A stretch of 64,000 nucleotides of DNA from Candidatus Acidiferrum sp. (GCA_035317605.1 DATHGT010000258.1:18477-82476); one strand, 5' to 3'. Positions 7,151-36,533 are shown, numbered from the stretch's first letter. Notes: generated from the sequence alone by a model not told the origin. Numbers and translations are program-made.

Positions 7151-7690
7151 CTATCCCCGCTCGGCGAGGAGTCGGCGGATCACCGTTTCGGTTTCGTCGT
7201 AGGCGCCCTCGCCGATGTGGCGATGGCGCACGATGCCCTTGCGGTCGACGAGCACTGCGGTCGGCCAGGCCCACACGCCGAACCGCTGCCAGATCGCCAT
7301 GTCGTTGTCCAGGACGACCGGATAGAGGATGCCGAGCCTGCGCACCGCCGCCCGCACGCTGTCGGTCGGCTTCTCCCAGGAGAACTCCGGCGTGTGCACG
7401 CCCACGATGGTGAGCCCGTCACGCTCGTACTTGCCGTGCCAGACCCGCAACTGCGGGATCACGTTCTTGCAGTTGATTCACCCGTAGGTCCAGAAATCCA
7501 CCAGCACCACGCGCCCCCGCAGCGCCGCCGGCGCCAGGGGCTCGCTGTTGATCCACGGCCCGCCCACGATCTCCGGCGCCGGCCGATCGAGCGCCGGCCC
7601 CCTGCCCTGCGCGCCACCGTGAAGCGCGATGCCGACGAGCGCGAGACAAACCAGGGCCGCAATAAACGCCGACCGAAGCACCAAGATCAT
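7151..7690 (-). CDS. TlpA/ResA-like thioredoxin-fold thiol:disulfide oxidoreductase, predicted selenoprotein with an in-frame UGA (Sec) at 7478..7480 in a UxxC motif
   Basis: ORF 7478..8068 ends ...RVVLVDFWTYG at a TGA. The same frame continues INCKNVIPQLRVWHGKYERDGLTIVGVHTPEFSWEK... as ORF 7151..7462. The joined sequence is VLVDFWTYG-U-INCKNV, the canonical W-x-x-C-x-x-C redox site with the first Cys replaced by TGA. A 7-bp hairpin (caactgc...gcaguug) begins 2 nt after the UGA. The N-terminus has a signal/anchor (MILVLRSAFIAALVCLALVGIALHG) and the stop is a TAG 4 nt before the HK start. Confidence 0.7.
7448..7475 (-). promoter_or_regulatory. SECIS-like stem-loop immediately 3' of the UGA in the TlpA-like gene
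   Basis: On the - strand the sequence is UGA-au-CAACUGC-aagaacgugauccc-GCAGUUG, a perfect 7-bp stem with a 14-nt loop. Confidence 0.5.
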
Positions 7691-7752
7691 GTCTGAGACA
7701 GTGCGCCAGGCGTGAGCCGCTGTTGTCAACGCAATGTCAAATGTGTTCGAGC

Positions 7753-7767
7753 GCGGGCTTTGCCCGC
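7753..7767 (-). terminator. Putative terminator hairpin after fumB, followed by a promoter-like TTGACA...TTGACA region ahead of the TlpA-like operon
   Basis: GCGGGCaaaGCCCGC is a perfect 6-bp stem 5 nt after the fumB stop. Downstream on the - strand the sequence acatTTGACAttgcgTTGACAacagc precedes the ATG at 7690. Confidence 0.4.
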
Positions 7768-7772
7768 GAAGT

Positions 7773-8462
7773 TTAGACGATCTCCTCTTCGCAGGAGGCT
7801 TGCTCGCCGAAGCGGCCCATGGCGAACGGGGGGAGGTCGCGGTAGACCTCGCGCAGGCGGACGTTGATCTCGCGGTTGGCCAGCGCGAAGAGGCTGTGGC
7901 CCTCGCGGTCGCCCTCGACCAGGAACGGGCCCAGGCGCTCGACCTCGAGCACCCACAGGGCCTGGGCGATGCCCAGCTCGCGCAGCCAGTGGACGTCCAC
8001 CACGCGCTTGATCGAGCGGCCGTACGTCGCCCCGAGGCCGTAGCCGACGGTGGTGAGATACACGGCACCGTGGGGCACGTACCACTCTCGATACGCGGTC
8101 TCGGTGAGCCCGGCCTTGCCCACGATCACCTTCGCGCCGGTCTTCTCGAACCAGCGGCTCATCGACTTACCGAAGCGGAAGCTCGCGGTCGCGGTCACCG
8201 CCTCGACCGCGTGGGTGCCGTCGGCCCGCACCGTCGCCGCCGGCGAGCAGTGGAAGTTGACGTTGGTCAACGCCCGGACGCTCTCGGGCAATCCCGCCCC
8301 CTCGTCCACGACCTTGCGGTACACGCCTTCCCGCGCGGTGTAGAGGATGCCGCTGAGATAGACGACGTCGCCCAGCTTGAGCCGCGCGAGGTCGGCGTCG
8401 CTCACGGGGGTGGTGAGGGCGACCTCGTCCATCGCCACGTCGTCGAGGCGCGCGATCGTCAC
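7773..8462 (-). CDS. fumB: Class I (Fe-S) fumarate hydratase / L(+)-tartrate dehydratase, beta subunit (C-terminal domain protein)
   Basis: VTIARLDDVAMDEVALTTPVSDADLARLKLGDVVYLSGILYTAREG...KVIVGKAGLTE... matches this family. The GTG start overlaps the alpha-subunit TGA (GTGA). The upstream part of ORF 7773..9200 is a shadow of the alpha gene. Confidence 0.85.
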   Translation of the reverse strand: MTIARLDDVAMDEVALTTPVSDADLARLKLGDVVYLSGILYTAREGVYRKVVDEGAGLPESVRALTNVNFHCSPAATVRADGTHAVEAVTATASFRFGKSMSRWFEKTGAKVIVGKAGLTETAYREWYVPHGAVYLTTVGYGLGATYGRSIKRVVDVHWLRELGIAQALWVLEVERLGPFLVEGDREGHSLFALANREINVRLREVYRDLPPFAMGRFGEQASCEEEIV

Positions 8463-9403
8463 TCGATGCCCTCGCGCCGGTAGTAGTCGGTGAACCATTG
8501 CGGGTCGGTCCGGAACTCCACGCGACCGTCGGGATGGATGCGCGCGGTCGCCCGCCTGGAGGACAAGCAAAACGAGTGCATGCCCACCGGCATTCCACCC
8601 GTGTGGGAGTACGCGACTTCGACATGGGTGGCGACGACCAGCGACGTCCCCGCGAAGCCCATGGCCCCGATCCCGATGTAGTTGCCGAGCGCGGTCAGCT
8701 CTTCTTCCAGCCGAGCCACGACGGGATCGGGATTGCGGCTGCCCACCACGCGCAGGCAGGCCGCCTCCTTGCCCAGGCGCACGCACGTGTCCTTGGCGCC
8801 GCCGATGCCGAGGCCCACGATGGCGGGCTGGCAGGCCAGCCCGCGCTTGCCGAACTGCACGAGCGTGTCGACGAAGAACCGCTTGATACCGGGAATGCCG
8901 TCGGCCGGAAACAGCATGCGGTAATCGCTGCCGAACAGTCCCCCTTTGTGCACGGTCGTGACGTCGATCCAGTCGGCGCCGGGCTCGAACGCGTAGGTGA
9001 TCTCCGGCGCGTGGATGCCCACGTTGTTGTCGTGGTCGGCGCGGGTGAGCGGATGCACGCGGTTCGGACGCAGCGGGATCGCCGCGGTGGCGTCGGCGGT
9101 GGCCCGACGCAGCGCGCGCTCGAGAGCGACGAACCCGCCCTCGACCACGGCCTCGTTGCCGGCGCGCACGTAGTAGCGGGGCAGCCCGGTATCCGCGCAC
9201 ATCGGCCGCCGATCTTCCGTCGCGATGTTCCAGTTCTCGAGCATCTCGGTCAGCACGAAGCGCGGCAGCTTGCTCGTCTCGAGGTCGCGCGCCTGCCGGA
9301 TCCCCTCGCGATAGTCCGGCGGAATGTCGATGGCCGCCCGCGCCATCAACTCCCGCGCGGTGTCCTCGACGAGCTTGATCGCGATCGTCCCGCCCATGGT
9401 CAC
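8459..9403 (-). CDS. fumA: Class I fumarate hydratase / Fe-S hydro-lyase, alpha subunit (N-terminal domain protein)
   Basis: The protein shows MTMGGTIAIKLVEDTARE...RRPMCADTGLPRYYVRAGNEAVVEGG...GLACQPAIVGLGIGGAKDTC. The Cys ligands are typical of the Fe-S hydro-lyase tartrate/fumarate family. Confidence 0.85.
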   Translation of the reverse strand: MTMGGTIAIKLVEDTARELMARAAIDIPPDYREGIRQARDLETSKLPRFVLTEMLENWNIATEDRRPMCADTGLPRYYVRAGNEAVVEGGFVALERALRRATADATAAIPLRPNRVHPLTRADHDNNVGIHAPEITYAFEPGADWIDVTTVHKGGLFGSDYRMLFPADGIPGIKRFFVDTLVQFGKRGLACQPAIVGLGIGGAKDTCVRLGKEAACLRVVGSRNPDPVVARLEEELTALGNYIGIGAMGFAGTSLVVATHVEVAYSHTGGMPVGMHSFCLSSRRATARIHPDGRVEFRTDPQWFTDYYRREGIE

Positions 9404-9416
9404 GCTTAGAGTACCC

Positions 9417-11160: not shown

Positions 11161-11201
11161 CGCCCGAAGGAGCCGAGACGCGAGGAACGGGAGGAGCGCT
11201 C

Positions 11202-13649: not shown

Positions 13650-13650
13650 G

Positions 13651-13692: not shown

Positions 13693-13693
13693 A

Positions 13694-15232: not shown

Positions 15233-15380
15233 ATGGACCTCCTGGGTCGTCCGGAACAAGGTGAGGGAGCGGTTATAGGCCGTGGCCCCCGGCCGTGTCA
15301 AGAAACGCCTCCTCGCGCTCTCGACCCGCGAGACCGTTGGGATCGGCTGTCAGCGCGTCGGATCGATACGTAAATTGGTA

Positions 15381-15404
15381 TTCCCGATTGGCGTTTCCGA
15401 TTGC
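15381..15404 (+). promoter_or_regulatory. Tandem direct repeat TTCCCGATTGG / TTTCCGATTGC (13-nt period) 37-60 nt upstream of the EgtB-like ATG
   Basis: Seen directly in the divergent intergenic region between the SBP gene (-) and the EgtB-like gene (+). Confidence 0.35.
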
Positions 15405-15440
15405 ACCCACCCAAATCCCCGGTACGATTTGCGTGACGCC

Positions 15441-16787
15441 ATGAGCCCAACGGCGCTCGCCCTCGATCTGGAGCGGCGCTTCCGAATCGTCTGGGAGCGG
15501 ACGGATCGGCTCTTCGAGCTGGTCGTCCCCGACGGCATCTTCCAGCGTCCGATCGCCCTGCGCCATCCGTTCATCTTCTACGTCGGTCACCTGCCGGCCT
15601 TCGCCTGGAACCATGTGTGCCGGCGACTGCTCGGTCGTCCCTCGTTCAACCCGCGCTTCGACGAGATCTTCGACCGGGGCATCGATCCCGACGTCGACGA
15701 TCCGACGCAGTGCCACGCGCATCCCGAGGTCCCTGACGCCTGGCCGAGCCTGGACGCCGTGCTCGCGTACCGGGATCGGGTCCGCAGCGAGATGCTCGCC
15801 TCGCTCGACGAGGCCGCGGACGCTCCGGCGACCGACGTGATGGCCGAGAACGGTCGCGTCCTCCTGATGATGCTCGAGCACGAGCAGATGCACCAGGAGA
15901 CGCTGCTCTACATGATGCAACGCCTGCCGCTCTCGCGACTCACCCGTCCCGCCCTGCCCCCTTCCTACACGTTCGCCGACGCGCTTCGCTCCCGCCCGAT
16001 CGAGGTCGAGGCCGGCCGCGCGACCCTCGGGGCCGACTTCGACGACCTCGATTTCGGCTGGGACAACGAGTTCCCGCGCGTCACCCTCGCGGTGCCGCGC
16101 TTCGTGATCGACTCGACCCCGGTCACCAACGGCGACTTTCTCGAGTTCGTCGAGAGCGGCGGCTACGGTCGCGCCGAACTTTGGGGCGACGGTGACTGGC
16201 CGTGGAAAGAAACCGCCGGGCTCCGTCATCCGATGGTGTGGACGTTTCGCGACGGCGCCTGGGTCTACCGCACGCTCCTCGACGAGCTGACGCTGACGTC
16301 GGCCCGCGACTGGCCCGTCTACGTCAGCCTGGCCGAGGCGCGTGCGTTCGCCAGATGGCGGGGCCACCGGTTGCCGACCGAAGCCGAATACCACCGCGCG
16401 GCGTACGGCGAGCCCGGCGGCGGCGAGCGCCCGTTCCCCTGGGGCGACGACGAGCCAAGCTCCCGCCACGGCAACTTCCACTTCGCCCACGGGTCTGCCC
16501 TGCCCGTCGGCTCTCATCCCGCCGGCGCGAGTGCGTGGGGCGTCCACGAACTCATCGGTAATGGCTGGGAATGGACGGAGAGCGCGTTCACGCCCTTCCC
16601 CGGATTCGGGGCGTACATCCCCGGCTATCCGGGATACTCCGCCGATTTCTTCGACGGCAAGCACTACGTGCTCAAGGGCGCGTCCTGGGCCACCGACGCG
16701 CAGCTGATCCGCCGGACCTTCAGGAACTGGTACCAGTCCCGCTACCCATACGTCTTCGCGAAGTTCCGCTGCGTCCGCCCGGTCTGA
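15441..16787 (+). CDS. EgtB-type sulfoxide synthase-like non-heme-iron enzyme (DinB_2 N-terminal domain fused to a formylglycine-generating-enzyme / sulfatase-modifying-factor fold)
   Basis: The N-terminal DinB-like helical bundle carries His motifs (HPFIFYVGHLPAF...HEQMHQE). The C-terminal FGE-sulfatase fold shows RVTLAVPRFVIDSTPVTNGDFLEFV...WRGHRLPTEAEYHRAAYG...GNGWEWTESAF. The start is ATG 15441 (M54 of ORF 15282..16787). Confidence 0.8.
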   Translation: MSPTALALDLERRFRIVWERTDRLFELVVPDGIFQRPIALRHPFIFYVGHLPAFAWNHVCRRLLGRPSFNPRFDEIFDRGIDPDVDDPTQCHAHPEVPDAWPSLDAVLAYRDRVRSEMLASLDEAADAPATDVMAENGRVLLMMLEHEQMHQETLLYMMQRLPLSRLTRPALPPSYTFADALRSRPIEVEAGRATLGADFDDLDFGWDNEFPRVTLAVPRFVIDSTPVTNGDFLEFVESGGYGRAELWGDGDWPWKETAGLRHPMVWTFRDGAWVYRTLLDELTLTSARDWPVYVSLAEARAFARWRGHRLPTEAEYHRAAYGEPGGGERPFPWGDDEPSSRHGNFHFAHGSALPVGSHPAGASAWGVHELIGNGWEWTESAFTPFPGFGAYIPGYPGYSADFFDGKHYVLKGASWATDAQLIRRTFRNWYQSRYPYVFAKFRCVRPV

Positions 16788-16826: not shown

Positions 16827-17750
16827 TCAGTGCGGGGGTTGGGGCAGCGGCAGATCGAAGGGGGCGCCCCACGTGAACGTGTGGGTCTGCCCGCTGGACG
16901 ACCGAAGCACGAACCACTCGGCCGTCGAGCCTCGCTCCACCGCGACGTCCGCTTTGCCGTCGCCGTCGAAGTCGCCGGGCACCGGGGTGTCGCCGGGAGC
17001 GCCGAAGGTGAGCGCCTGCAATCCGGTGGCGCTGCCGAAGATCAGCCACTCGCCCGTGGCCGTCCGATAGACGGCCAGATCGGTCTTGCCGTCACCGTCG
17101 AAGTCGGCGGGCACCGGAACGTCGCCGAGCCCGCTCGCGGCCGGAGCGCCGAACACTCGGGTTTGAAAGCCGGTGGCGCTGCCGAAGATGAACCACTCCC
17201 CGGTGGCCTTGCGATAGACGGCGAGATCGGCCTTGCCGTCGCCGTCGTAGTCCCCGGGCACCGGCGTGTCGCCGAGGCCAAGCGAGGCGGGAGAACCGAA
17301 GAGCAGCGTCTGAAAGCCGGTCGCCGTGCCGAACACGAACCATTCGCCGGTGGCCTTGCGATAGACGGCGAGATCGGCCTTGCCGTCGCCATCGTAGTCC
17401 GCGGGCACCGCCGTGTCGCCGAGGCCCAGCGAGGCGGGGGAGCCGAAGAGCAGCGTCCGGAAGCCGGTCGCGCTGCCGAACACGAACCATTCGCCGGTCG
17501 CTTGCCGGTAGACCGCGAGATCCGTCCGGCGATCGCCATCGAAATCGGCGGGCACCGGCGAGTCGCCGAGACCGCTGGCGGCCGGCGAGCCGAAGAGCAG
17601 CGTCTGAAAACCCGTCGCGCTGCCGAACACGAACCACTCTCCCGTGCCCGGTCGATAGACGGCCGCGTCCGTCTTGCCGTCGCCGTCGAAGTCACCGAGG
17701 ACCCGCCCGACGGCCAGGGTCGCGGTGCGGACCGTGGAGCCCCCCCCGTT
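16827..17750 (-). repeat. ~0.9-kb FG-GAP-module DNA repeat, copy 1 (3' end of protease 1)
   Basis: This copy is ~85-93% nucleotide-identical to 20203..21110 and 23887..24790. The same alternative-frame ORFs recur: 17092..17637, 20441..21028 and 24167..24712 all read MVRVRQRDRLSD.... Confidence 0.7.
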
Positions 17751-19640
17751 CGTGGTGTTGGTGAACGCCAGCGTGGAGGGACCATAGGTGCCGAGGGCGA
17801 GGCCGTTGGCGGTGGCGTTCACGGTGAAGGTCACCGTCGTGGCCGACGTGGTCGCCGTGCCCGACATCGGCGAGGCGGTCAACCAGCTCGGCACCCCGGA
17901 GATGGCAAAGTTCACCGCGCCCGTCGTCGTGCTGAGCTGGAACTGGAACGACGACGGCGAGAAGGGTCCCCCCTTCTTCCCGGAGGAGAGGACGTTGCCG
18001 GCCGGCGTGACCTGCAAGGTGGGCACGAGCACGTTGACGGACAGGATCGCGGTCCGGGTGGTGTTGCCCAGACCGTTGGTGGTGTTGGTGAACGTGATGG
18101 TGGTCGGGCCGTAGACGCCGGGGGCGAGCGCGTTCGCGCCGGCGTTCACCGTGAAGGTGACCGTGGTCGCCGACGTCGTCGCGGTGCCCGAGGTGGCCGA
18201 GGCGGTCAGCCAGCTCGGCACCCCGGAAATCGAAAAGTTCACCGACCCGCTCGTCGCGCTCAGCTGATACGCGAACGAGGACGGCGAGAACGGCCCGCCC
18301 TGGAGGCCCGAAGCCGCGAGGTTGGTGGCCGGCGTCACCGAAAGGGCCGACGGTCCGCTCACCGTGATCGTGCTGCGTATCTCGGCGGCCGCGACGCCGC
18401 GCTCGACGATCACCTTCGCGGTGAAGGTGCCGGCGGAGGCGTAGACGTGGGGGGCGTTCTGCGAGGTGGCCACGACCGCGTTGAACTTCGCGCCGATGAC
18501 CGGGTTGGTCGGATCGCCGCAGGCCGCCGTCACCGCGCTCACGCTGGTCCCGGAGTTCGAGCAGTTCCACCAGAACGTGTAGTTGATCGTTCCCACCGCC
18601 GTGCCCCCGACCTGGGCGGTCAGCGTGGTGCTCAGCGGGCTGGGGCCGCTGGCAGGATTGGGCGTCAACGAGGCCGACAGCGACAGCACCGTCCATCCGA
18701 TGTCCTGAAACAGCGCGAGCTCCAGGCTCGGATCGAGCGGCACCGTGTAGATCGGCTCCATGATCTGATCGGGCGAGAGCGCGGTGTCCCAGTGCGACAC
18801 CGAGGAGCCGGGCTGCTGGGGACTCGGGGCGAACATCCGGACGTGGTCGCCCACCTTGCCCGCCGAGAGGATGCCACTGGCGGCCCGAACCTGAGCGCCG
18901 ACCCAGTGCAGGTTGCCGCTATTCGTGCTCGCGGCGACGCGCTGGGCGTTGGTCATGCTCGGATAGTCGGCCGGGCTGGCCCCGTGGCTTTCCAGGTTCA
19001 GCATGAACGTGTCGTTCAGGCCCAGGGCCTTGGCGCCGGTGGTCAGGTCGACGAGGGTGAGAAAGCCCAGCCCGTGGCCCAGCTCGTGGAGGAGGACCGT
19101 GACGAAGTCGATGTTGGCGCCCGCGTTGCCGTCGAGCCCGTAGTACCAGCTTCTCGGGAACGCGCAGGTCGTCCCGATCGCGCTGTTGAATTGCGCGTTG
19201 ATGTCGGCGGCGCCGTCGAGGTCGGTTCCATGGAGCGCGTTGGCGAGCGGGCTCGGATACCAGGTGGACCCCAGGGGGGCGCCGCTGAAATCGCGAAAGG
19301 CGGTGTTGGGGCCGGCGGACCCGAGGATCGCGGAGCTGGCGTTGCACGCCAACGGATCGAACGTGGCGTTGACCCGGATGGTCACCGCGCTGAACAGGAG
19401 CGCGCCCCAGACGTCCGCGGCGTGCTGGAAGGCGATCAGTCGCTGCGCGCCGAGCGTCACTCCGAGGTTACCACCTATGGGAGCCACGGGGGTCGCATCG
19501 TTGAACCCCTCGCCGGGGCCGTCGTTGTTGATCACCGTGATGACCGCGGCGTGCGCGAGGGGAGACGCGACGGTCGCCAGCCCGACGAGCGACGCGAGCG
19601 CGACGACGACGCTGAACCCCCTCCGGCGGCGCCTCACCAT
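16827..19640 (-). CDS. Secreted zinc metalloprotease (HEXXH: VLLHELGHGLGFL) + 2 Ig-like domains + C-terminal FG-GAP repeat beta-propeller (protease cassette 1)
   Basis: The signal peptide is MVRRRRRGFSVVVALASLVGLATVASPLAHA (ATG 19640). HELGHGLGF is the zinc-binding HEXXH motif. There are two ~100-aa tandem Ig-like repeats (...SGVPSWLTAS...TVTFTVNA...). Six or seven ~50-aa FG-GAP/VCBS repeats follow (GDFDGDGKTDLAVYR...GEWFVFGSATGF...LFG). Confidence 0.8.
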   Translation of the reverse strand: MVRRRRRGFSVVVALASLVGLATVASPLAHAAVITVINNDGPGEGFNDATPVAPIGGNLGVTLGAQRLIAFQHAADVWGALLFSAVTIRVNATFDPLACNASSAILGSAGPNTAFRDFSGAPLGSTWYPSPLANALHGTDLDGAADINAQFNSAIGTTCAFPRSWYYGLDGNAGANIDFVTVLLHELGHGLGFLTLVDLTTGAKALGLNDTFMLNLESHGASPADYPSMTNAQRVAASTNSGNLHWVGAQVRAASGILSAGKVGDHVRMFAPSPQQPGSSVSHWDTALSPDQIMEPIYTVPLDPSLELALFQDIGWTVLSLSASLTPNPASGPSPLSTTLTAQVGGTAVGTINYTFWWNCSNSGTSVSAVTAACGDPTNPVIGAKFNAVVATSQNAPHVYASAGTFTAKVIVERGVAAAEIRSTITVSGPSALSVTPATNLAASGLQGGPFSPSSFAYQLSATSGSVNFSISGVPSWLTASATSGTATTSATTVTFTVNAGANALAPGVYGPTTITFTNTTNGLGNTTRTAILSVNVLVPTLQVTPAGNVLSSGKKGGPFSPSSFQFQLSTTTGAVNFAISGVPSWLTASPMSGTATTSATTVTFTVNATANGLALGTYGPSTLAFTNTTNGGGSTVRTATLAVGRVLGDFDGDGKTDAAVYRPGTGEWFVFGSATGFQTLLFGSPAASGLGDSPVPADFDGDRRTDLAVYRQATGEWFVFGSATGFRTLLFGSPASLGLGDTAVPADYDGDGKADLAVYRKATGEWFVFGTATGFQTLLFGSPASLGLGDTPVPGDYDGDGKADLAVYRKATGEWFIFGSATGFQTRVFGAPAASGLGDVPVPADFDGDGKTDLAVYRTATGEWLIFGSATGLQALTFGAPGDTPVPGDFDGDGKADVAVERGSTAEWFVLRSSSGQTHTFTWGAPFDLPLPQPPH

Positions 19641-19668
19641 CGCCGCCTCGCCCCGTGGCGCCGAATCG

Positions 19669-20073
19669 TCATGGCTTGTCGGCAACGGGACGCGTCTCGT
19701 CGAGATGCTGCATCTTGACCTTTCCGCCGGCATCGATGGTGACGATCAGCGGGTTCTGGAAGCGCCCCTGGAGATCGAGCTTGACCCCGCCACCGGCGAC
19801 GGAGCTCGGCGTCTCGACCAACCCTTGATGCGAGGTGCTCAGCGAATTGGCGAGCTGCGGGCTCAGCTGAAGCGGCACGGTGCCCGGCGCCGGCTCCTCG
19901 AGAATCGCTCCGGTCTGGGGATCGACGTAGATCACCATGCCCGGTGCGCCTTGCGCGGCCGCGACGGGCGGGCTGTCTCCGGCGAACACGGGCGGGGCCA
20001 CCACGGCGAAGCTGCCGAGGACCACGAGCAGGCCCAAGAACAATCCCTGAGGACGCGCGCGCTTCTCCTTCAT
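19669..20073 (-). CDS. Small secreted protein (134 aa) encoded immediately upstream of protease 1; paralog at 26002..26385
   Basis: The signal peptide is MKEKRARPQGLFLGLLVVLGSFAVVAPPVFA. The SD is GAAGGAGG 9 nt upstream. The mature region (MVIYVDPQTGAILEEPAPGTVPLQLSPQL...LIVTIDAGGKVKMQHL) is ~85% identical to the 26002..26385 product. The stop lies 28 nt before the protease start. Confidence 0.6.
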   Translation of the reverse strand: MKEKRARPQGLFLGLLVVLGSFAVVAPPVFAGDSPPVAAAQGAPGMVIYVDPQTGAILEEPAPGTVPLQLSPQLANSLSTSHQGLVETPSSVAGGGVKLDLQGRFQNPLIVTIDAGGKVKMQHLDETRPVADKP

Positions 20074-20202
20074 CGGGCCGTGCCTCCTTCTACAGACTCA
20101 GCCCTTCGAAGCTACCCCACCGGCACCGCGAATCGAGAACAAATACCTCGCGTTGTCGAAGATGGCCGAGGAGTGCGAAAGAGCGTCGGCCTCGCCGGTC
20201 GG

Positions 20203-21110
20203 TCAGTGCGCGGGTTGCGGCACCGGCAGGTCGGAGGGCGCGCCCCACACGGACGTTTGGGTCTGGCCCGTGGACGATTGCAGCACGAACCACTCGCCGG
20301 TCGCGTTCCGTCGCACGGCGAAGTCCGCCTGGCCATCGCCGTCGTAGTCCCCCTGCACCGGGGTGTCATTGAGACCGCTCGAGGCGGGAGAGCCGAACAG
20401 GCGGGTCTGAAAGCCGGTGGCGCTGCCGAAGACAAGCCACTCACCCGTGGCCTTCCGATAGATGGCCAGATCCGCCTTGCCGTCGTGGTCGTAGTCGGCA
20501 GGGACCGGAATGTCGCCGAGCCCGCTCACGGCGGGAGCGCCGAACAGCAGGGTCCGAAACCCGGTGGCGCTGCCGAAGATGAACCATTCCCCGGCGGCCT
20601 GGCGGTAGACGGCGAGGTCCGCGATGCCGTCGCCGTCGTAGTCCGCGGGAACCGGAATGTCGCCGAGCCCACTGGAGGCCGGAGCGCCGAACAGCAGCGT
20701 CCGAAAGCCGGTCGCGCTCCCGAAGACGAACCACTCGCCGGTGGCCTTCCGGTACACGGCCAGATCCGCCTTGCCGTCGCCGTCGAAGTCGGCGGGCACC
20801 GCGGTGTCGCCGAGACCACTGGCGGATGGAGCGCCGAACAGCAAGGTCTGAAAGCCGGTCGCGCTGCCGAAGACGAACCACTCGCCGGTCGCTTGCCGGT
20901 AGACCGCGAGGTCCGTCTTGCGGTCGCCGTCGAAGTCGGCGGGCACCGGCGCGTCGCCGAGGCCGCTCGAAGCGGGAGATCCGAACAGGAGCGTCTGAAA
21001 CCCGGTGGCGCTGCCGAACACGAACCACTCGCCCGTGGTCGGTCGATAGACGGCCAGGTCTTTCTTGCCGTCGCCGTCGAAGTCACCTCCGACGCCGTGC
21101 GGGGAGTTCG
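20203..21110 (-). repeat. FG-GAP-module DNA repeat, copy 2 (3' end of M4 protease)
   Basis: The gene 3' ends are almost identical (ctcagtgcgcgggttgcggcaccggcaggtcggagggcgcgcccc at both 20203 and 23887). Confidence 0.7.
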
Positions 21111-23343
21111 CGACACACCGGTAGAGACGGATATCGTCAATGAACCAGCCATAATCGTCGACGCTGGAGTCGGTTCCCATCCGGAAGCGGAACCGGACGT
21201 TCTGCCCGGCCAAGCTCGTCAGGTTCAATTGTGAGGCGGTGTACCCGAAGCTGTGCTTGACGAAGGCGCTGCGCCCTCCGAGCAGGTTGGAGAAACTCGA
21301 ACTGATGGTGCCGCCGTACGTCGCGCCGGCGGTGATCAAACTTCCCGCGTCGGACCAGCTCGCACCGCCGTTGGTGCTGTACTCGATCACACCGCCGTCG
21401 TAGTTGGCGGTCGCGCCGTTTTCGAAGCCGTACGCGTGATTGAACTGTAACCGCGCGCCGCCGGCGGGGATGGCCACGCTGCTCGTCATCGCGATGGCAG
21501 AATCGGCAATCGTCGGTCGGTCGTAGCCGAAAAAGTTTCGTACGCCGCTGGTGGCGAACACGGAGTCGGCGGGAGGCGGGTAGAACCAGTGAGGCGTGCC
21601 CGTCGCCGTGGTGATCGTCCAGTTGCCGGCGGCCGTGTTCTCCAGGTTGTCGAAGAAGAGAGTGGCCGGAACCTGGCCCGCCGGGCAAAAGGCGGGGACC
21701 GCGGCCTGAGGCGGCGAGCATGGCCAGGCGTTGGCCATCTGCACCGCATCGAGCGCCCGACCCACCTGGGTACAATCGCCGGACGTGATCGACGCCGTTC
21801 CGATCAGGTCGTTGCAGGCGCGCTTGAGGGCGTCGTAGTTGTCCAGGAAATCCGACCCCGACAGCAGATAATTCGTCAGGGCGCGGTACTGGATCTTCGC
21901 GGCCTTGGTCAGCCCGATCCCCGTGATGGTGAACCCGTTGTACGTCCCGCCGTCCACCATGAGGGCATAGGCGTGGTTGGGAACGCCGCTGTTGGTGTGG
22001 ACACCACCGGCATCGCCGCCCGGCATCGCACAGGCGAACTGCGAGGTGTCGCTCAGCTTGCCGGGATCGCCGAACGCATTCGGGTTCATCATGTTTCGAA
22101 ACGCCCCGATTCCGGGGACATCCTCGCCGATCAGCCAGCGGACCGCCGCCGTGTCCGTGCCCGCGCCGTTCGTGAGGTCGATCGTTTCCCCGAAGATGTC
22201 GGAATAGGACTCGTTCAGGGCGCCGGACTGCATGTAGTAGAAGAGGTTGGCCGAGTGCTCGGTGACGGCGTGGGTCAGCTCGTGGGCGTCGACGTCGTCT
22301 GCCCTGGAGAACCCGTTTCCGTACACCATCTGCGTGCCGTTCCAGAAGGCATTCTCGTAGTTGCAGCCGTTGTCGGTCGGACAGTAGTGCACGGTCGAAA
22401 GCAGCATGGCCCCGGCGCCGTCGTAGCTGTCTCGACCGTGTTGTGTGAAAAAGTAGTTGTAGGTGTCCCCGGAAAAATTATAGGCGGCGTTGACGTCGGC
22501 GTCTCCGGTCGGCCCCTGCCCCTCGGAGCGCACCAGAGTGCCCGGCAGGATACTTCCGCCGTTCGCGGTATAGATCCTGCGGTTCAGGGCATCGGTGAGC
22601 TGGCTGAAGTCCAACAACCGAACTCCGGTCCCGGCGTCGATCCACATGAACTGGCGCAGGTCGATTCGGCTCGCCTCGACGAACCAGGCCAGGCGAGTGG
22701 GCGCCTGGATGCCGTCGAGCATGGGACGGCTGAACACTTCGAGCCGCGGCGGGCCGAAGACCGCGCCCACGACGCCGAAGTGCTTCACCACGAGCGCCTC
22801 GGCCCGGGCCAAGGCCTCGGCGTCGCTGATCGTGGGCGAGGTGACGATCTTCTCGGTGACGTCGAGCGTCTTGGCGTTGACGGCGACGACACCGGCGCCG
22901 ATGAGGTGAACCGTCAGTTCGCCCGCGGTGACGGGCACGCCTCCATGGAGCTGCCGGAACCGCACGTGCTCCATGCCCACTTCGTCAGGACCACTCGTCT
23001 TCGCATGCGCGAGATCCGCCACGTCGGCAATCCCGAACGCCCGGCCGTACGACGACACGAACGCTCGCGCTCGCGCTTCCGCCGGGGCGCTCGCGGAAAC
23101 GGCCAGCGGGATCGGCCCCCCGGACACCGACAGGAACGTCAAGAGACCGTTCACGCGGGACCGGGTCGTTTCGAGAGGCGCCGCCGCCGCGAGCTCCATG
23201 CGCTGCACCTCCGACGTGACGAGATCGGCGGCGGCGCGAGCGAGACCCCCGGCGCAGAGGCTCAAGGTTATAGAAAGAATGATAGTGCCAAGGATATTCG
23301 CTCGCGGCGGCAGTCGGCAGGAGCACGCGTTGGTCTCGGTCAT
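20203..23343 (-). CDS. Secreted M4 (thermolysin-like) zinc metalloprotease with FTP/PepSY-type propeptide and C-terminal FG-GAP repeat beta-propeller (protease cassette 2)
   Basis: The M4 signature is VDAHELTHAVTEHSANLFYYMQSGALNESYSDIFGE (HEXXH + ExxxD). The N-terminal signal is MTETNACS...ILGTIILSITLSLCAGGLARA (ATG 23343, AGGAAGAAAG upstream). The last ~300 aa are FG-GAP repeats nearly identical to cassettes 1 and 3. Confidence 0.85.
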   Translation of the reverse strand: MTETNACSCRLPPRANILGTIILSITLSLCAGGLARAAADLVTSEVQRMELAAAAPLETTRSRVNGLLTFLSVSGGPIPLAVSASAPAEARARAFVSSYGRAFGIADVADLAHAKTSGPDEVGMEHVRFRQLHGGVPVTAGELTVHLIGAGVVAVNAKTLDVTEKIVTSPTISDAEALARAEALVVKHFGVVGAVFGPPRLEVFSRPMLDGIQAPTRLAWFVEASRIDLRQFMWIDAGTGVRLLDFSQLTDALNRRIYTANGGSILPGTLVRSEGQGPTGDADVNAAYNFSGDTYNYFFTQHGRDSYDGAGAMLLSTVHYCPTDNGCNYENAFWNGTQMVYGNGFSRADDVDAHELTHAVTEHSANLFYYMQSGALNESYSDIFGETIDLTNGAGTDTAAVRWLIGEDVPGIGAFRNMMNPNAFGDPGKLSDTSQFACAMPGGDAGGVHTNSGVPNHAYALMVDGGTYNGFTITGIGLTKAAKIQYRALTNYLLSGSDFLDNYDALKRACNDLIGTASITSGDCTQVGRALDAVQMANAWPCSPPQAAVPAFCPAGQVPATLFFDNLENTAAGNWTITTATGTPHWFYPPPADSVFATSGVRNFFGYDRPTIADSAIAMTSSVAIPAGGARLQFNHAYGFENGATANYDGGVIEYSTNGGASWSDAGSLITAGATYGGTISSSFSNLLGGRSAFVKHSFGYTASQLNLTSLAGQNVRFRFRMGTDSSVDDYGWFIDDIRLYRCVANSPHGVGGDFDGDGKKDLAVYRPTTGEWFVFGSATGFQTLLFGSPASSGLGDAPVPADFDGDRKTDLAVYRQATGEWFVFGSATGFQTLLFGAPSASGLGDTAVPADFDGDGKADLAVYRKATGEWFVFGSATGFRTLLFGAPASSGLGDIPVPADYDGDGIADLAVYRQAAGEWFIFGSATGFRTLLFGAPAVSGLGDIPVPADYDHDGKADLAIYRKATGEWLVFGSATGFQTRLFGSPASSGLNDTPVQGDYDGDGQADFAVRRNATGEWFVLQSSTGQTQTSVWGAPSDLPVPQPAH

Positions 23344-23389
23344 TGCTTGACTTTCTTCCTTGCAGTTCGTGGCCGCCGGAAAACTACTG

Positions 23390-23842
23390 TCAATCCAGAT
23401 CCGAGTCAAGCGTAGGAGTCAGTTCCTCGATCTCCGTGATCTCGACGACGCGTTCCGTGGCCGGTGGGCACGGCGGGCGGATACATCGCGCTCGAGGGTT
23501 CCTCTCATCCGCGTAGCGATAGCGGACACGCACGGTCTTCCCCACGAAGGAACCGAGGTCGAATGCCGCCGTGTTCTGCACGTAGATCTGGTGAACACCT
23601 TCACAGCGGACGGTCAAGACGTAGCGATCACCGAGGCGGTCGATCGAGGCCGGACCGTGAATCTCGTACACCCCGTCGAGCCGGCGTTCGCAGGCGGTCG
23701 GCAGCAGGATCTGGGGCTCACCGAACGCGGGTGTCGTCCCCAGCGGTGAGAGGTTGTGTGTCGCCGACGGGCCGACGTGCCCAGGTCCAACAACCGCCAC
23801 GACGATCGCGGCCGCCGCACACCGACTCCGAGCCGTGCTCAA
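23390..23842 (-). CDS. Small secreted Cys-containing protein (~150 aa) immediately upstream of the M4 protease
   Basis: The C-terminal 150 codons of ORF 23390..24124 begin at TTG 23842 with a signal-like region STARSRCAAAAIVVAVVGPGHVGPSA. The product has 4 Cys (ACERRLDGVYEIHG...TVRCEGVHQIYV...ARCIRPPCPP). Upstream residues of the listed ORF are a shadow of the pseudogene end. No strong SD, so the start is uncertain. Confidence 0.4.
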   Translation of the reverse strand: MSTARSRCAAAAIVVAVVGPGHVGPSATHNLSPLGTTPAFGEPQILLPTACERRLDGVYEIHGPASIDRLGDRYVLTVRCEGVHQIYVQNTAAFDLGSFVGKTVRVRYRYADERNPRARCIRPPCPPATERVVEITEIEELTPTLDSDLD

Positions 23843-23886
23843 GGGTTGATCATGAACCGTCGACAGGTCCACGAAGGTGCCGGTTG

Positions 23887-24790
23887 TCAGTGCGCGGGTT
23901 GCGGCACCGGCAGGTCGGAGGGCGCGCCCCAGACGGACGTCTGCGTCTGCCCGGTCGACGATTGCAGCACGAACCACTCGCCGGTCGTGTTCCGTCGCAC
24001 GGCGAGGTCCGCCGGGCCGTCGCCGTCGTAGTCCCCCTGCACCGGGGTGTCGTTCAGACCGCTCGAGGCCGGAGAGCCGAACAGTCGGGTCTGAAAGCCG
24101 GTAGCGCTGCCGAAGACGAGCCACTCGCCGGTGGCCCTGCGATAGATGGCGAGGTCCGCCTTACCGTCACGGTCGAAGTCGGCAGGCACCGGAATGTCGC
24201 CGAGGCCGCTCGCGGCGGGGGCGCCGAACAGGAGGGTCCGAAAGCCGGTGGCGGTGCCGAAGATGAACCATTCGCCGGTGGCCTGGCGATACACAGCCAG
24301 ATCCGCTTTGCCATCGCCGTCGTAGTCCGCGGGCACGGGAATGTCGCCGAGGCCACTCGAGGCCGGAGCACCGAACAGGAGGGTCCGAAACCCGGTCGCG
24401 GTGCCGAACACGAACCATTCGCCGGTGGCCTTCCGGTACACGGCCAGATCCGCCTTGCCGTCGCCGTCGAAGTCGGCGGGCACCGCGGTGTCGCCGAGAC
24501 CACTGGCGGATGGAGCGCCGAACAGCAAGGTCTGAAACCCGGTCGCGCTGCCGAAGACGAACCACTCGCCGGTGGCTTGCCGGTAGACCGCGAGATCGGT
24601 CTTGCGGTCGCCGTCGAAGTCGGCGGGCACCGGCGCGTCGCCGAAACCGCTCGAAGCCGGAGATCCGAACAGCAGGGTCTGAAAGCCGGTGGCGCTCCCG
24701 AACACGAACCACTCCCCCGTGGCCGATCGATAGACGGCCAGATCTTTCTTACCGTCACCGTCGAAGTCACCCAAGACAGCTCGGACGTTC
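23887..24790 (-). repeat. FG-GAP-module DNA repeat, copy 3 (3' end of the disrupted protease)
   Basis: See copies 1 and 2. Confidence 0.7.
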
Positions 24791-25973
24791 AGGGTCGCGG
24801 TCCGGGTCGTGTTGCCCTGGCCGTTCGTGGTGTTGGTGAACGTGATCGTGGTGCCATAGAGGCCGGGCGCGAGAGCGTTCGCGCCGGCGTTCACCGTGAA
24901 GGTGATCGTCGTCCCTGTCGTCGTCACCGTGCCCGAGGTCGCCGACGCGGTCAGCCAGCTCGGCAGGCCGGAGATCGAAAAGTTCACCGACCCGCTCGTC
25001 GCGCTCAGCTGATACGCAACCGCCGACGGCGAGAATGGCGCGCCATGGCTCCCGGCCACGCTGACGTTGGCGGCCGGCGTGACCTGGAGCGTCAACAGCG
25101 CCAGCGGCCAGCCGATGTCCTGGAAGAGCGAAAGTTCCAGGCCTGGCCCGCTGAGGGGGACCGTGTAGCTCGGCTCCATGAGCTGGTTGGGAGTCAGCGC
25201 GGTGTCCCAGTGCGACACCGAAGAGCCGGGTTGCTGGGGATTCGGAGCGAACATCCGGACGTGGTCACCCACCCTTCCCGCCGTCAGAGCGCCGCTGGCC
25301 GCCCTCACCTGAGCCCCGACCCAGTGCAGGTTCCCGGTGTTCGTGCTCGCGGCGACCCGCTGGGCATTGGTCATGCTCGGAAAGTCGGCCGGGCTGGCCC
25401 CGTGGTTTTCGAGGTTGATCATGAACGTGTCGTTCCGGCTGAACATCTTCGCGCCCGTGGCCAGGTCGACGAAGGTCAGAAAGCCCAGTCCGTGGCCCAG
25501 CTCGTGGAGAAGGACCGTCACGAAATCGATATCGCCGCCGGCGTTGCCGTCGAGCCCGTAGTACCAGCTCCTCGGAAACGCGCACGTGGTCCCGACCGCG
25601 CTGTTGAATTGCGCGTCGATGTCGGCGGCCGTGGGGTCGAGGTCACTGCCGTGCAGCGCATTGGCCAGCGCGATCGGATACCAGGTGGCAGGCAGAAGAG
25701 CCCCGCTGAAGTCGCGGAAGGAGCTGGAGGGGCCAGCGGAGCCGAGCACCGCCGAGCTGGCGTTGCAGGCCAGAGCATCGAACGTGGCGTTGACCCGGAT
25801 CGTCACCGCGGTGTTGAGAACCGCGCCCCAGATGTCCGCAACCCCTCGCCGGCGCCGTCGTTGTTGATCACCGTGACGGTCGCCGCCTGCGCGATCGGAG
25901 ACGCGACAGCGACCATCCCCAAGAACGACGCCAGCAGGACGATCATGCCCGACCGGGCCCGACGGAGTCCCAT
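23887..25973 (-). pseudogene. Frameshifted copy of the cassette-1-type HEXXH metalloprotease (protease cassette 3), disrupted by an 85-bp deletion near codon 50
   Basis: The N-terminus MGLRRARSGMIVLLASFLGMVAVASPIAQAATVTVINNDGAGEGL (ATG ~25973) matches cassette 1. Relative to cassette 1 (19480..19565) an 85-bp segment is missing after ...CCCCAGATGTCCGC. The frame shifts to a TGA overlapping the GTG at 25806, from which ORF 23887..25806 (VTIRVNATFDALACNASS...HELGHGLGF...FG-GAP) continues without a signal peptide. Confidence 0.6.
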
Positions 25974-26001
25974 CCCCACCTCGCTGCGTGGTGCCGAACC
26001 G

Positions 26002-29202: not shown

Positions 29203-29214
29203 CGGGATTATACG

Positions 29215-30742: not shown

Positions 30743-30743
30743 G

Positions 30744-31619: not shown

Positions 31620-31718
31620 GAAAGCGATTGCCTACCTTGCGGCGGGATCTTACACAGCCCGAGGGCGGAAGGGAAGACCTTTTCACAAAAAGATCGATTT
31701 TTTGCTGACCATCTGATT

Positions 31719-32853: not shown

Positions 32854-32909
32854 GACATTCCCTCCGCGCGTGATCGAGTCCGGCGATGATGGACTAGAAT
32901 ACGCGACCA

Positions 32910-34114: not shown

Positions 34115-34118
<4 letters not shown>
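32910..34118 (+). CDS. CoA-transferase family III (CaiB/BaiF) protein
   Basis: The protein shows LDGLTVLDFTRVLAGPYCTRLLADLGARVIKIE...VENFVPGVMAKLGLDY. GTG start. Confidence 0.85.
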
Positions 34119-34531
<413 letters not shown>

Positions 34532-34544
34532 GCCTGGACTCCTC

Positions 34545-34781
34545 TCAGCCTTCCGCGAGTGCCGCGTCGATCGCCTTGGGGTTGAAGCCGGTCAGCTTCT
34601 TGTCGCCGATGAGCAGCACGGGCAGCGACAGGAGGCCCAGCGCCATCAGCTCCTGGCGGGCCTCCGGGTCACGTCCCACGTTCTTCTCGGTGAACACCAC
34701 GCCCTTTTGCGATAGATACTCTACCGCTCGGTGACAGGGCCCTCAGCCGATGTTGGTGTAGACGGTGATGCTCGGCGCCAT
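34545..34781 (-). CDS. Glutaredoxin/NrdH-like redox protein, predicted selenoprotein with an in-frame UGA (Sec) at 34743..34745 in a U-G-P-C active site
   Basis: ORF 34743..35084 ends ...MAPSITVYTNIG at a TGA. The same frame continues GPCHRAVEYLSQKGVVFTEKNVGRDPEARQELMALGLLSLPVLLIGDKKLTGFNPKAIDAALAEG* to the TGA at 34545. This is a Grx/NrdH layout (VYT-x-x-x-C-P-x-C-HRA) with TGA at the first Cys. GGAGG sits 7 nt before ATG 34781. An 8-bp hairpin lies 15 nt after the UGA. Confidence 0.65.
34710..34728 (-). promoter_or_regulatory. SECIS-like hairpin 3' of the UGA in the Grx-like gene
   Basis: On the - strand GCGGUAGA-gua-UCUAUCGC forms an 8-bp stem (one G-U pair) with a 3-nt loop, beginning 15 nt downstream of the UGA. 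Confidence 0.45.
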
Positions 34782-34887
34782 GCGTTCCCCTCCTCTACGT
34801 TGAGATGCGCGTGACCCGCGCGCGGGTTCGATGGTAACACCGCTGTGGTACGCTCCGCGCGAATCGACCGCCGAGGAGGAACGGGTG

Positions 34888-35748
34888 ATGTCCGATACCG
34901 TGCACGTGGCCAGCGGCAAGGTGCGAGAACTGTACGCGCTCGACGACGACCGGCTGCTGCTCGTGGCCTCCGACCGGATCTCGACCTTCGACGTCGTGCA
35001 TCCGACCGCCATCCCCGACAAGGGCCGCGTGCTCGCCGGCCTCGCCGCGTTCTGGTTCACGCGGACGCGCACGATCTGCCTCAATCACCTGTTGACCGTG
35101 CGACCCGACGGCCGCTCGACCGAATGCCGGCGGCTGGCCATGCTGCCCATCGAGTGCGTGGTGCGCGGCTACCTCGCCGGTTCGGGGTGGCGCGACTACC
35201 GGACGCGCGGCGAGGTCTGCGGTCACCGCCTGCCCGCCGGGCTCCGCGAGTCCGACCGCCTGCCCGAGCCGATCTTCACGCCCGCCACCAAGGCCCAGAC
35301 CGGCCACGACGAGAACATCACCCGCGAGGAGGCCGCCTCCGTGGTCGGCGCCGAGCGCCTCGCCGAGGTCGAGCGCCTCTCGCTCGAGCTGTATCGCTTC
35401 GCGTCGGAGTACGCCCGCGAGCGCGGGATCGTCATCGCGGACACCAAGTTCGAGTTCGGCCTCGATCGCGCGGGACGCGTGGTGCTGGGTGACGAGGCGC
35501 TGACACCGGATTCGTCCCGCTTCTGGCCCGCCGACCAGTACGCGCCCGGCGGTCCGCAGCCGTCGTTCGACAAGCAGTTCGTCCGCGACTACTGCGAGCG
35601 CACGGGATGGGACAAGACCCCGCCCGGACCGGAGCTTCCGCCGGACGTGGTCTCCGGCACGCGGGCGCGCTACGTCGAAGCGTTCGAGCGCCTGACGTCG
35701 ATCGAGTTCGACGGCTACCTCGCCGACCCGACCGTGGTCCTGGGTTAA
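34888..35748 (+). CDS. purC: Phosphoribosylaminoimidazole-succinocarboxamide synthase (SAICAR synthetase)
   Basis: The protein shows MSDTVHVASGKVRELY...LLVASDRISTFDVV...GIVIADTKFEFG. GGAGG sits 9 nt before ATG 34888 (M20 of the listed ORF). Confidence 0.9.
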   Translation: MSDTVHVASGKVRELYALDDDRLLLVASDRISTFDVVHPTAIPDKGRVLAGLAAFWFTRTRTICLNHLLTVRPDGRSTECRRLAMLPIECVVRGYLAGSGWRDYRTRGEVCGHRLPAGLRESDRLPEPIFTPATKAQTGHDENITREEAASVVGAERLAEVERLSLELYRFASEYARERGIVIADTKFEFGLDRAGRVVLGDEALTPDSSRFWPADQYAPGGPQPSFDKQFVRDYCERTGWDKTPPGPELPPDVVSGTRARYVEAFERLTSIEFDGYLADPTVVLG

Positions 35749-36533
35749 GCGCCGGGCACGGGAGTCCGATCGACGGGCGCGATGGCGCCCATGTCGGACT
35801 CGAGCTGGAGCGTGTCGGCGATCTTGCTGTAGCTCGAGAACATCTGCGCCACGCCGAGGATCTCCATCACCCCGCGCTCGCCGACACCGAGCCGTCGCAT
35901 CTGACCCAGGTGCAGCGCCGTCCCGAAGCGCGAGCGTGACGTGAGCGAGACCGCGAAGGCCAGCGCTTCCTTCAGCCGCCGGGTCAGCGCGTGGTCGTCG
36001 AACGCGTGACGGAGCGCGCCCCAGAAATCGGCGAGATACCCGGGATCGTGGGCGAGCGTCAGGAACGGCGCGGGCATGTCGCCGTAGAACGCGCGGATCT
36101 CGTCGAAGACGGCGCGAGCTTCATCGCCCGGTTCGGTCGGCGGCGGCAGGATCTCAGCGGGTAATCCGTCGGCGACCACGTTGAGCGCGTTGGTGATGCC
36201 GACGACGGACGCGGCCTCGTACCAGAGCGCGTCCTCCTTCATCCCCTGCAGCTTCCCGGCCGCAGTGTGCGCTTCCACTCAGTAGCGACAGGCATTCACC
36301 CCGCTGACGACGGCCGCGACCATCTCCTTCTCCGCTCGTGTGAACTCGCCGGGCCCCATCGCCCGCTTCATCGCCCGCCCGTGAGGACCGCCGAACCCGG
36401 GATCCCACGCCATCACCCGACTCATCGCCGGCGGCTCCACGAAGTCATACCCGAACCACGCCTTCGACAGCTCGAACAGCCTGCGCGCCGCCTCCGGATA
36501 CTCCGACGCGTCTCGAATCCTCACCGTGGTCAT
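35745..36533 (-). CDS. AhpD/carboxymuconolactone-decarboxylase-family peroxidase-related protein, predicted selenoprotein with an in-frame UGA (Sec) at 36279..36281 (C-x-Y-U motif)
   Basis: ORF 36279..36533 ends ...EKEMVAAVVSGVNACRY at a TGA, and ORF 35745..36278 continues in the same frame from the next codon (GTG) as VEAHTAAGKLQ.... The joined sequence VSGVNACRY-U-VEAH matches the CMD/AhpD-core motif N-x-C-x-Y-C-x-x-x-H with the second Cys replaced by TGA. A very strong SD (GGAGGAGG) sits before ATG 36533. A 7-bp hairpin lies 13 nt after the UGA. Confidence 0.65.
36247..36266 (-). promoter_or_regulatory. SECIS-like hairpin 3' of the UGA in the AhpD-like gene
   Basis: On the - strand CUGCGGC-cgggaa-GCUGCAG forms a 7-bp stem with a GG-containing loop, beginning 13 nt downstream of the UGA. 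Confidence 0.45.

Follow-up and report, generated by a model that had tools for sequence, protein, structure and literature searches.

Reading frames and redox motifs of three UGA-interrupted genes

We analyzed a 64,000-nucleotide stretch of DNA (the window) from a genome labelled Candidatus Acidiferrum sp. (GCA_035317605.1, DATHGT010000258.1:18477-82476) for genes in which an in-frame UGA may encode selenocysteine (Sec). A preliminary description of the stretch had reported three UGA-Sec redox genes between positions 7,151 and 36,533. The G+C content of the window is about 70%. The whole window was translated in six frames with TGA read as "U", and thiol-oxidoreductase motifs with an internal TGA were found at three places, all on the minus strand, where they had been described. 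Each gene contains one in-frame TGA, exactly at the position of a redox-active Cys. The three genes, one thioredoxin (Trx)-like, one glutaredoxin (Grx)-like and one AhpD-like, and their candidate Sec codons are as follows.

7690-7151, minus strand: candidate Trx-like selenoprotein gene (DipZ-C/TlpA/ResA-type, "Prx-like"); 179 aa, WTYG-U-INC, putative hydrophobic N-terminal signal or anchor
7480-7478, minus strand: TGA, candidate Sec codon of the Trx-like gene
34781-34545, minus strand: candidate Grx/NrdH-like selenoprotein gene; 78 aa, IG-U-GPC, strong Shine-Dalgarno sequence
34745-34743, minus strand: TGA, candidate Sec codon of the Grx-like gene
36533-35745, minus strand: candidate AhpD/CMD-like selenoprotein gene with two domains; 262 aa, NAC-RY-U-VEAH, strong Shine-Dalgarno sequence
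36281-36279, minus strand: TGA, candidate Sec codon of the AhpD-like gene

The read-through proteins, with U replaced by C, were searched against Pfam. The AhpC-TSA, Thioredoxin_8 and Redoxin domains span the TGA of the Trx-like gene, all above the gathering score. Glutaredoxin (PF00462; 51.4 bits, gathering score 22.9) spans that of the Grx-like gene, and CMD (PF02627; 58.8 bits, gathering score 23) that of the AhpD-like gene. In the AhpD-like protein, NAC-RY-U-VEAH aligns with N-x-C-x-Y-C-x-x-H of the structures 2oyo, 2ouw and 6k40, and Sec takes the position of the redox-active Cys. The Sec of the Grx-like protein aligns with the redox-active Cys in CPHC of glutaredoxin 7c10. The closest characterised relative of the Trx-like protein is the C-terminal thioredoxin domain of DipZ from M. 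tuberculosis (PDB 2hyx, E 3e-38). Its earlier designation as TlpA-like therefore holds at the superfamily level of Pfam, but not at the family level, since the scores are far below the NCBIfam cut-offs (ResA, 55.6 vs 170; DsbE, 32.9 vs 123; TlpA, 28.8 vs 230).

The sequences upstream of the ATG codons of the Grx-like and AhpD-like genes are GAGGAGGGG and GGGGAGGAGG, respectively. The N-terminus of the Trx-like protein is hydrophobic (MILVLRSAFIAALVCLALVGIALHGGAQG), as judged from the sequence itself.

The coding periodicity in third-position G+C (GC3) is unbroken on either side of the three UGAs. We then rescanned the window, as had been proposed, considering each TGA that has coding-like GC3 on its two sides or a Shine-Dalgarno start close by. 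Only the same three TGAs are credible. TGA 50593 (minus strand) has a coding signal on its flanks and was rejected as an ordinary stop codon followed by the start of an epimerase gene; TGA 18265 (plus strand) and the remaining matches were rejected as antisense-frame artefacts. A global reassignment of UGA was also rejected, since TGA is the normal stop in 30 of the 48 GC3-supported open reading frames (ORFs) of the window.

The window is 99.9% identical to an independent European Nucleotide Archive (ENA) assembly contig, ERZ27268012:k141_62674; the two differ by single-nucleotide polymorphisms and an 85-bp indel in a repeat gene. All three candidate Sec genes are 100% identical between them, and are thus not assembly errors. 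The gene calls of the ENA pipeline split the Trx-like gene at the TGA into ORFs of 70 and 103 aa and the AhpD-like gene into ORFs of 84 and 165 aa, and include only a C-terminal 50-aa fragment of the Grx-like gene. The chance that three random nonsense codons would all fall on a CxxC cysteine is roughly 3e-10.

UGA conservation, hairpins and Sec machinery in relatives

For the AhpD-like gene, all 32 genomic loci compared, each from a GTDB species representative, have TGA at C-x-Y-U. These loci are mostly from Rokubacteria/Methylomirabilota, and also from metagenome-assembled genomes (MAGs) labelled Acidobacteriota, Binatia, Deferrimicrobiaceae and Dehalococcoidia. The alignments of the best 120 database homologues (65-95% identity) are all confined to the 63-67% of the protein that lies after the TGA. 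The orthologous group is Sec-only: a Cys form was found in none of the 32 genomes and in none of the best 120 database matches. For the Grx-like gene, G-U-GPC with TGA is kept in seven of seven relatives (L007, L013, L015, L016, L026, L118 and L120). Among 74 metagenomic relatives of the Trx-like gene, 14 have UxxC (TGA) and 60 have CxxC (TGC or TGT). The UxxC forms are mainly the closest relatives (59-92% identity), and the 14/60 split is the classical pattern of a Sec/Cys pair. On an unrelated metagenome contig (L106, 1859-2518), a fragment of a SelB gene adjoins a Cys-form (CxxC) homologue of the Trx-like gene.

A published model of the bacterial Sec insertion sequence (bSECIS) describes a loop of 3-9 nt, a stem of 4-16 bp, a G in the first two loop positions, a distance of 16-37 nt from UGA to loop and a minimum free energy (MFE) of -7.5 kcal/mol or lower (PMC13188914). 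The following hairpins, one in each gene, all satisfy this model.

7444-7457, minus strand: predicted bSECIS of the Trx-like gene, CCCGC-AGUU-GCGGG; 5 bp, 4-nt loop, 25 nt from UGA to loop, -8.3 kcal/mol
34709-34727, minus strand: predicted bSECIS of the Grx-like gene, GCGGUAGA-GUA-UCUAUCGC; 8 bp, 3-nt loop, 23 nt from UGA to loop, -8.6 kcal/mol
36246-36265, minus strand: predicted bSECIS of the AhpD-like gene, CUGCGGC-CGGGAA-GCUGCAG; 7 bp, 6-nt loop, 20 nt from UGA to loop, -10.1 kcal/mol

Thus, a hairpin follows the UGA in every case, as the preliminary description had stated; its distance of 2-15 nt is only approximate, as the UGA and the start of the stem are 13 nt apart in AhpD, 15 nt in Grx and 20 nt in Trx. 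Compared with shuffled sequence, the z-scores of the MFE were +0.36 (Trx), -2.33 (Grx) and -0.19 (AhpD). Stability by itself does not set two of the hairpins apart from chance, and the hairpins are supported instead by conservation and covariation.

In 33 sequences of the AhpD-like gene, the third-position entropy is about 0 at codons 5-10 after Sec (ACU GCA GCC GGG AAG CUG), which include ACU and GCA, both rare in these high-GC genomes. The other nearby Ala codons of this gene have a third-position entropy of 1.3-1.6 bits. In the Trx hairpin, the third positions of AUC CCG CAG UUG CGG, including the rare UUG, are invariant in 12 Sec-form relatives, and the hairpin was not found in the Cys-form relatives. 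A second Sec clade of the Trx-like gene has a different hairpin at a similar distance from the UGA. For the Grx hairpin, 64 of 64 cells are paired across eight sequences, vs 16-50% in slid controls. The covariation in these sequences consists of one compensatory pair (C-G/U-A) and two wobble-compatible pairs, and is modest with only eight sequences. The constraint at synonymous sites, present in each hairpin, and the Grx covariation indicate that the hairpins are under selection at the RNA level.

The window hairpins resemble the SECIS of E. coli fdhF, at which SelB acts in recoding, in lying just downstream of the UGA within the ORF, with a G in the first two loop nucleotides and 20-25 nt between UGA and loop. 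In contrast, the three hairpin sequences are unlike each other and unlike that of fdhF.

In six relatives (L008, L011, L020, L027, L033 and L034), ARAGORN detected tRNA-Sec 1.4-6 kb downstream of the AhpD-like gene. All six were confirmed by Rfam RF01852 (68-71 bits, cut-off 47). In four loci, a gene with strong homology to SelA comes after the tRNA-Sec and three small genes; in a fifth, L008, the sequence stops within this gene. SelB homology comes next in the same four loci, of which L033 ends after 24 aligned residues. Curated models gave 578-580 bits for SelA (cut-off 268) and 372-384 bits for SelB (cut-off 242) on L027 and L020. Since tRNA-Sec, SelA and SelB are found beside the AhpD-like gene in relatives, the lineage owns the Sec apparatus and keeps it beside the AhpD-like gene family.

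The gene order around this apparatus is conserved in L011, L020, L027, L033 and L034. It opens with the end of the 23S/5S rRNA genes, an MltD-like transglycosylase gene and a MoaD/ThiS-like gene, whose 81-aa product ends in GG+1, and continues with AhpD-like(Sec), tRNA-Sec, the three small genes, selA and selB, from the start of each locus to about 16 kb. A gene for a protein of 430-480 aa is convergent on the AhpD-like gene (L027, 7815-9119, minus strand; equivalents in L008, L011, L020, L033 and L034). It weakly matches NCBIfam "(seleno)protein" models for an ExtKL-like multihaem cytochrome and a UshA-like PCGU protein, and could be a member of a further selenoprotein family.

The window proteins are identical to NCBI HMH52596-HMH52635, which come from a third-party-annotation soil MAG labelled "Candidatus Acidoferrum sp.", a name absent from the current taxonomy dump. 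The nearest other named homologues, for acetyl-CoA synthetase (86-89%), an FTR-like protein (ferredoxin:thioredoxin reductase-like, described below) and the AhpD-like gene, are from Rokuibacteriota/Methylomirabilota. Based on these homologues, the source is treated here as a Rokubacteria/Methylomirabilota-type soil MAG, with the disagreement of the label as a caveat. Several contigs of relatives that carry the same Sec gene bear the labels Binatia, Deferrimicrobiaceae or Acidoferrum.

Decoding of the UGA codons

Based on these results, the three genes are very probably genuine selenoprotein genes, in which UGA would be read as Sec via the standard bacterial pathway in a Rokubacteria/Methylomirabilota-type organism. 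In this pathway, tRNA-Sec receives Ser, SelA converts it with selenophosphate, and SelB brings it to a UGA with a SECIS hairpin downstream inside the coding sequence. We infer that Sec is inserted in this way in the source organism. The earlier proposal of a selenium-utilising organism is in agreement with the alignment to catalytic Cys residues, the conservation of the UGAs, the SECIS hairpins and their covariation, and the machinery in relatives.

Several observations weigh against this interpretation. As had been noted before, the Sec machinery is absent from the window: tRNA-Sec was not found by ARAGORN or Rfam, and selA, selB and selD were not found by tblastn or among the Pfam domain labels. 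The tblastn queries were SelA and SelB of the relatives and an approximate E. coli SelD sequence. None of these four genes was found in about 16 kb of the ENA contig k141_62674 beyond the window ends, and selD was seen in none of the fetched loci of relatives by tblastn with the approximate SelD query. Furthermore, the Trx and AhpD hairpins are no more stable than shuffles, as described above, and the label "Candidatus Acidoferrum sp." disagrees with the Rokubacteria affinities. A 90-nt "tRNA-Asn" called by ARAGORN at 8996-9085 (plus strand) was considered as a mis-called tRNA-Sec and rejected. Its anticodon, GTT, is at an odd position, and the call lies inside the fumarate hydratase gene and has no match in Rfam; it is a false positive.

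The lack of Sec machinery on the contig would also fit a readthrough of UGA as Cys, Trp or Gly by a near-cognate or suppressor tRNA, and decoding of UGA as Cys at Sec sites occurs in some bacteria under selenium limitation. This is very unlikely for the three genes, because SECIS-type hairpins at the canonical distance are under purifying selection, because tRNA-Sec, selA and selB adjoin the orthologous gene in relatives, and because TGA is the normal stop elsewhere in the window.

Alternatively, translation may stop at each UGA, and the downstream parts may be functional proteins with their own initiation. A GTG immediately follows the UGA of the AhpD-like gene, and the pipelines call downstream ORFs. 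However, such a split would cut a single Pfam domain and part the two residues of the redox motif, and the Cys-form homologues are single polypeptides. In addition, strong Shine-Dalgarno sequences stand before the full-length starts but none before the downstream pieces. Separate proteins are thus extremely unlikely.

That the TGAs are nonsense mutations or sequencing or assembly errors in pseudogenes or artefacts, as the splitting or shortening of all three genes by standard gene callers and the label "partial" of an NCBI homologue might suggest, is effectively refuted, in agreement with the preliminary description, by the identical sequence in two assemblies, the TGA kept in orthologues (32/32, 7/7 and 14) of various samples and phyla, the intact coding periodicity on both sides and the location of all three at a CxxC cysteine.

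The reading of the three genes as selenoprotein genes is correct but expected: the enzyme families and the bacterial group are already known for heavy selenium use, and it leaves the knowledge of Sec decoding itself unchanged. According to a 2026 review that cites Deng et al. 2026, a Methylomirabilota MAG has 63 predicted selenoprotein genes, the largest proposed bacterial selenoproteome (PMC13188914). Our result adds soil Rokubacteria/Methylomirabilota examples to the phylum flagged in this way. Standard pipelines (ENA/Prodigal-type and, judging by the label "partial", PGAP) split or shorten such genes. Therefore, as annotated in this MAG and in hundreds of metagenomic relatives, three antioxidant enzymes lack their catalytic residue.

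Related families and gene neighbourhoods

Selenoprotein catalogues have included AhpD-like (CxxU), Grx or Grx-like (UxxC) and Prx-like/thiol:disulfide oxidoreductase (UxxC) families since 2005-2008 (PMC1088965; PMC2398784; PMC13188914). Thus, that all three families have Sec forms, as the preliminary description had said, was already published (PMC2398784; PMC13188914).

The AhpD-like selenoproteins are the "AhpD-like 1/2" of Zhang & Gladyshev (PMC1088965; PMC2398784) and are placed under TIGR01926 in PMC13188914. The window protein shares with them the CMD/AhpD fold, C-x-x-U-x-x-H with Sec at the second Cys, and a bSECIS within the ORF. It differs from them in having two CMD domains, a length of 262 aa and a Sec-only orthologous group. 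Since it scores below the NCBIfam cut-offs of TIGR01926 (51.7 vs 81.8) and NF041238 AhpD_rel_CFYUT (31 vs 175), the window gene appears to belong to a distinct AhpD-like subfamily.

Like the Sec Grx and Grx-like selenoproteins (UxxC, PF00462), the Grx-like protein combines the Grx/NrdH fold with a Sec in place of the first Cys of CxxC. It is below the NCBIfam cut-offs of NrdH (68.8 vs 88.6), YruB (51.7 vs 85.8) and Uxx-star (37.6 vs 66). In contrast to those selenoproteins, its gene is paired with an FTR-like reductase gene and not with a glutathione or NrdI/NrdEF context. The Trx-like protein shares with the Prx-like selenoproteins (UxxC, PF00578) and DipZ-C the thioredoxin fold and W-x-x-x-[C/U]-x-x-C, and it may be exported. 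However, it is a stand-alone protein without the membrane domain of DipZ, and its Sec clade has a specific linkage to msrPQ. All three proteins score below the cut-offs of every curated NCBIfam selenoprotein or equivalog model. Thus, the three genes are new members or subfamilies of known kinds.

Three other genes of the window are related to redox or selenium families. The molybdopterin oxidoreductase at 47581-49614 (plus strand) is related to the formate dehydrogenase alpha subunit (294, cut-off 666) and carries Cys rather than Sec (MCPMNCHPTLCGM...). Thus, not every candidate Sec family in the window uses Sec. The Thioredoxin_9-family protein at 44424-45146 (minus strand) has S-x-x-C (EEWSSDCRRD) instead of CxxC, with no in-frame TGA and no NCBIfam match. 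At 15282-16787 (plus strand) lies an EgtB/OvoA/SenA-like sulfoxide (or selenoxide) synthase gene with DinB_2 and FGE-sulfatase domains. An assignment as a second selenium trait (selenoneine) was considered but not adopted: the protein is below the cut-offs of three equivalog models (272/400, 256/360 and 251/420), and it has no senB/senC or egtD neighbour.

The partner of the Grx-like gene is the following.

34115-34531, minus strand: FtrB-like (FTR catalytic-subunit-like) gene; 138 aa, 13 nt after the stop codon of the Grx-like gene

The FTR-like protein matches Pfam PF02943 (82.2 bits, gathering score 22) and PDB 2pvg/1dj7 (E about 6e-21; 2pvg, E 5.7e-21), and its signature, CPC-x16-CAC-x8-CHC, is complete. 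It thereby resembles FTRc/FtrB (1dj7, 2pvg) and archaeal FDR (4tpu), which share PF02943 and the complete CPC...CxC...CHC cluster/disulfide signature. It differs from FTRc/FtrB in its middle motif, CAC instead of CPC, and in its partner gene, which is Sec-glutaredoxin-like and not a thioredoxin gene; no variable subunit is evident. No variable-subunit candidate was noticed near the gene, with no test aimed at a heterodimer. The protein is below the NCBIfam "FtrB family double-selenoprotein" model (43 bits vs 160).

The FTR-like gene is paired with Grx(Sec) in seven relatives. Such a pair, with a Sec-form Grx-like gene, is present in an Entotheonellaceae locus. In five Rokubacteria genomes, Grx(Sec), FTR-like and AhpD(Sec) lie head to tail. 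In the window and in L118, the three are within 2 kb, with purC between. The three Sec genes had been taken as independent finds but are not fully so: in relatives, a single operon holds the Grx-like, FTR-like and AhpD-like genes. In our literature search, no paper was found that links FTR-like genes with selenoprotein operons.

These linkages suggest functions. The Grx/NrdH-like protein (U-G-P-C, cytoplasmic) and the FTR-like [4Fe-4S] disulfide reductase would be co-transcribed, and the reductase probably maintains the Grx/NrdH-like protein in its reduced state. The AhpD-like protein (C-x-x-U) is probably the terminal member of the FTR-like/Grx chain, reducing (hydro)peroxides or disulfides, because its gene is in the same operon as Grx(Sec) in relatives. 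Such an arrangement would be a chain of the reductase, carrier and peroxidase type. Two points count against this proposed electron flow. Its order and the substrates are drawn from gene linkage only, and a Chloroflexota locus has an FTR-like gene without a Grx-like neighbour. A universal pairing of FTR-like and Grx genes was rejected on account of this locus.

The Trx-like Sec gene opens a row of six closely spaced genes on the minus strand. The five genes that follow it are listed below.

5599-7146, minus strand: sensor histidine kinase (Pfam HisKA/HATPase_c, NCBIfam); it also follows Trx(Sec) in L041 and L046
4865-5602, minus strand: tetratricopeptide repeat (TPR) protein with a signal peptide, same operon; conserved in L039 and L040
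4176-4865, minus strand: OmpR/PhoB-type response regulator, same operon
3226-4182, minus strand: MsrP, catalytic subunit of the periplasmic protein-methionine-sulfoxide reductase (NCBIfam NF003767, 487.5 bits vs 207)
2570-3229, minus strand: MsrQ, haem-binding membrane subunit (NCBIfam NF003831, 166 bits vs 130)

In the Sec-clade relatives of the Trx-like gene, msrP-msrQ is always downstream. It follows directly in L044, L045 and L049; in L039, L040 and L046, TPR or kinase/regulator genes lie between Trx(Sec) and msrP-msrQ. The linkage of Trx with msrPQ was found in none of the Cys-form loci. In E. coli, hiuH, which encodes a small periplasmic protein, lies before msrPQ, and msrPQ is controlled by the HOCl-sensing HprSR (PMC9302797; bioRxiv 10.1101/2021.09.09.459708). 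The window operon resembles E. coli hiuH-msrP-msrQ with HprSR/YedVW in having the gene of a small, putatively periplasmic protein before msrP-msrQ, together with a histidine kinase and an OmpR-type regulator. However, its first gene encodes a Sec-containing thioredoxin-fold protein, not HiuH, and its two-component genes lie inside the operon. This neighbourhood points to a role of the putatively exported Sec Trx-like protein in envelope oxidative stress. The protein (U-x-x-C) is probably a thiol/selenol oxidoreductase or peroxidase of the envelope that acts against oxidative stress.

It is possible, though doubtful, that the three Sec genes are parts of two dedicated, undescribed selenium redox modules, a cytoplasmic chain and an envelope module. 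In the cytoplasmic module, electrons would pass from a donor (ferredoxin?) to the FTR-like [4Fe-4S] disulfide reductase, then to the Sec-Grx-like carrier and finally to the Sec-AhpD-like peroxidase or reductase. This module is suggested because the genes form one operon in several Rokubacteria and because the AhpD-like gene lies beside tRNA-Sec-selA-selB in others. In the envelope module, the putatively exported Sec-thioredoxin-fold protein would act with MsrPQ under the two-component system, in the place that HiuH has in E. coli. AhpD-like and Prx-like selenoproteins are listed as "function unknown", and the linkages of Grx(Sec), FTR-like and AhpD(Sec) and of Trx(Sec) and MsrPQ offer function hypotheses for them.

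Between the Trx-like and Grx-like genes, positions 16827-26001 (minus strand) hold three tandem paralogues of about 3.4 kb each, which encode large secreted FG-GAP/peptidase-M4 proteins and are open on both strands. The 85-bp indel between the window and the ENA assembly falls in this repeat region. To the right of the window, positions 3408-9722 of L002 hold a complete Pup-proteasome cluster. It contains a Mpa/ARC-type ATPase gene, two genes of the Pup-ligase family and the genes for proteasome alpha and beta. The genome with this cluster is of the Gram-negative type and also has OmpA, MlaA and MlaC.

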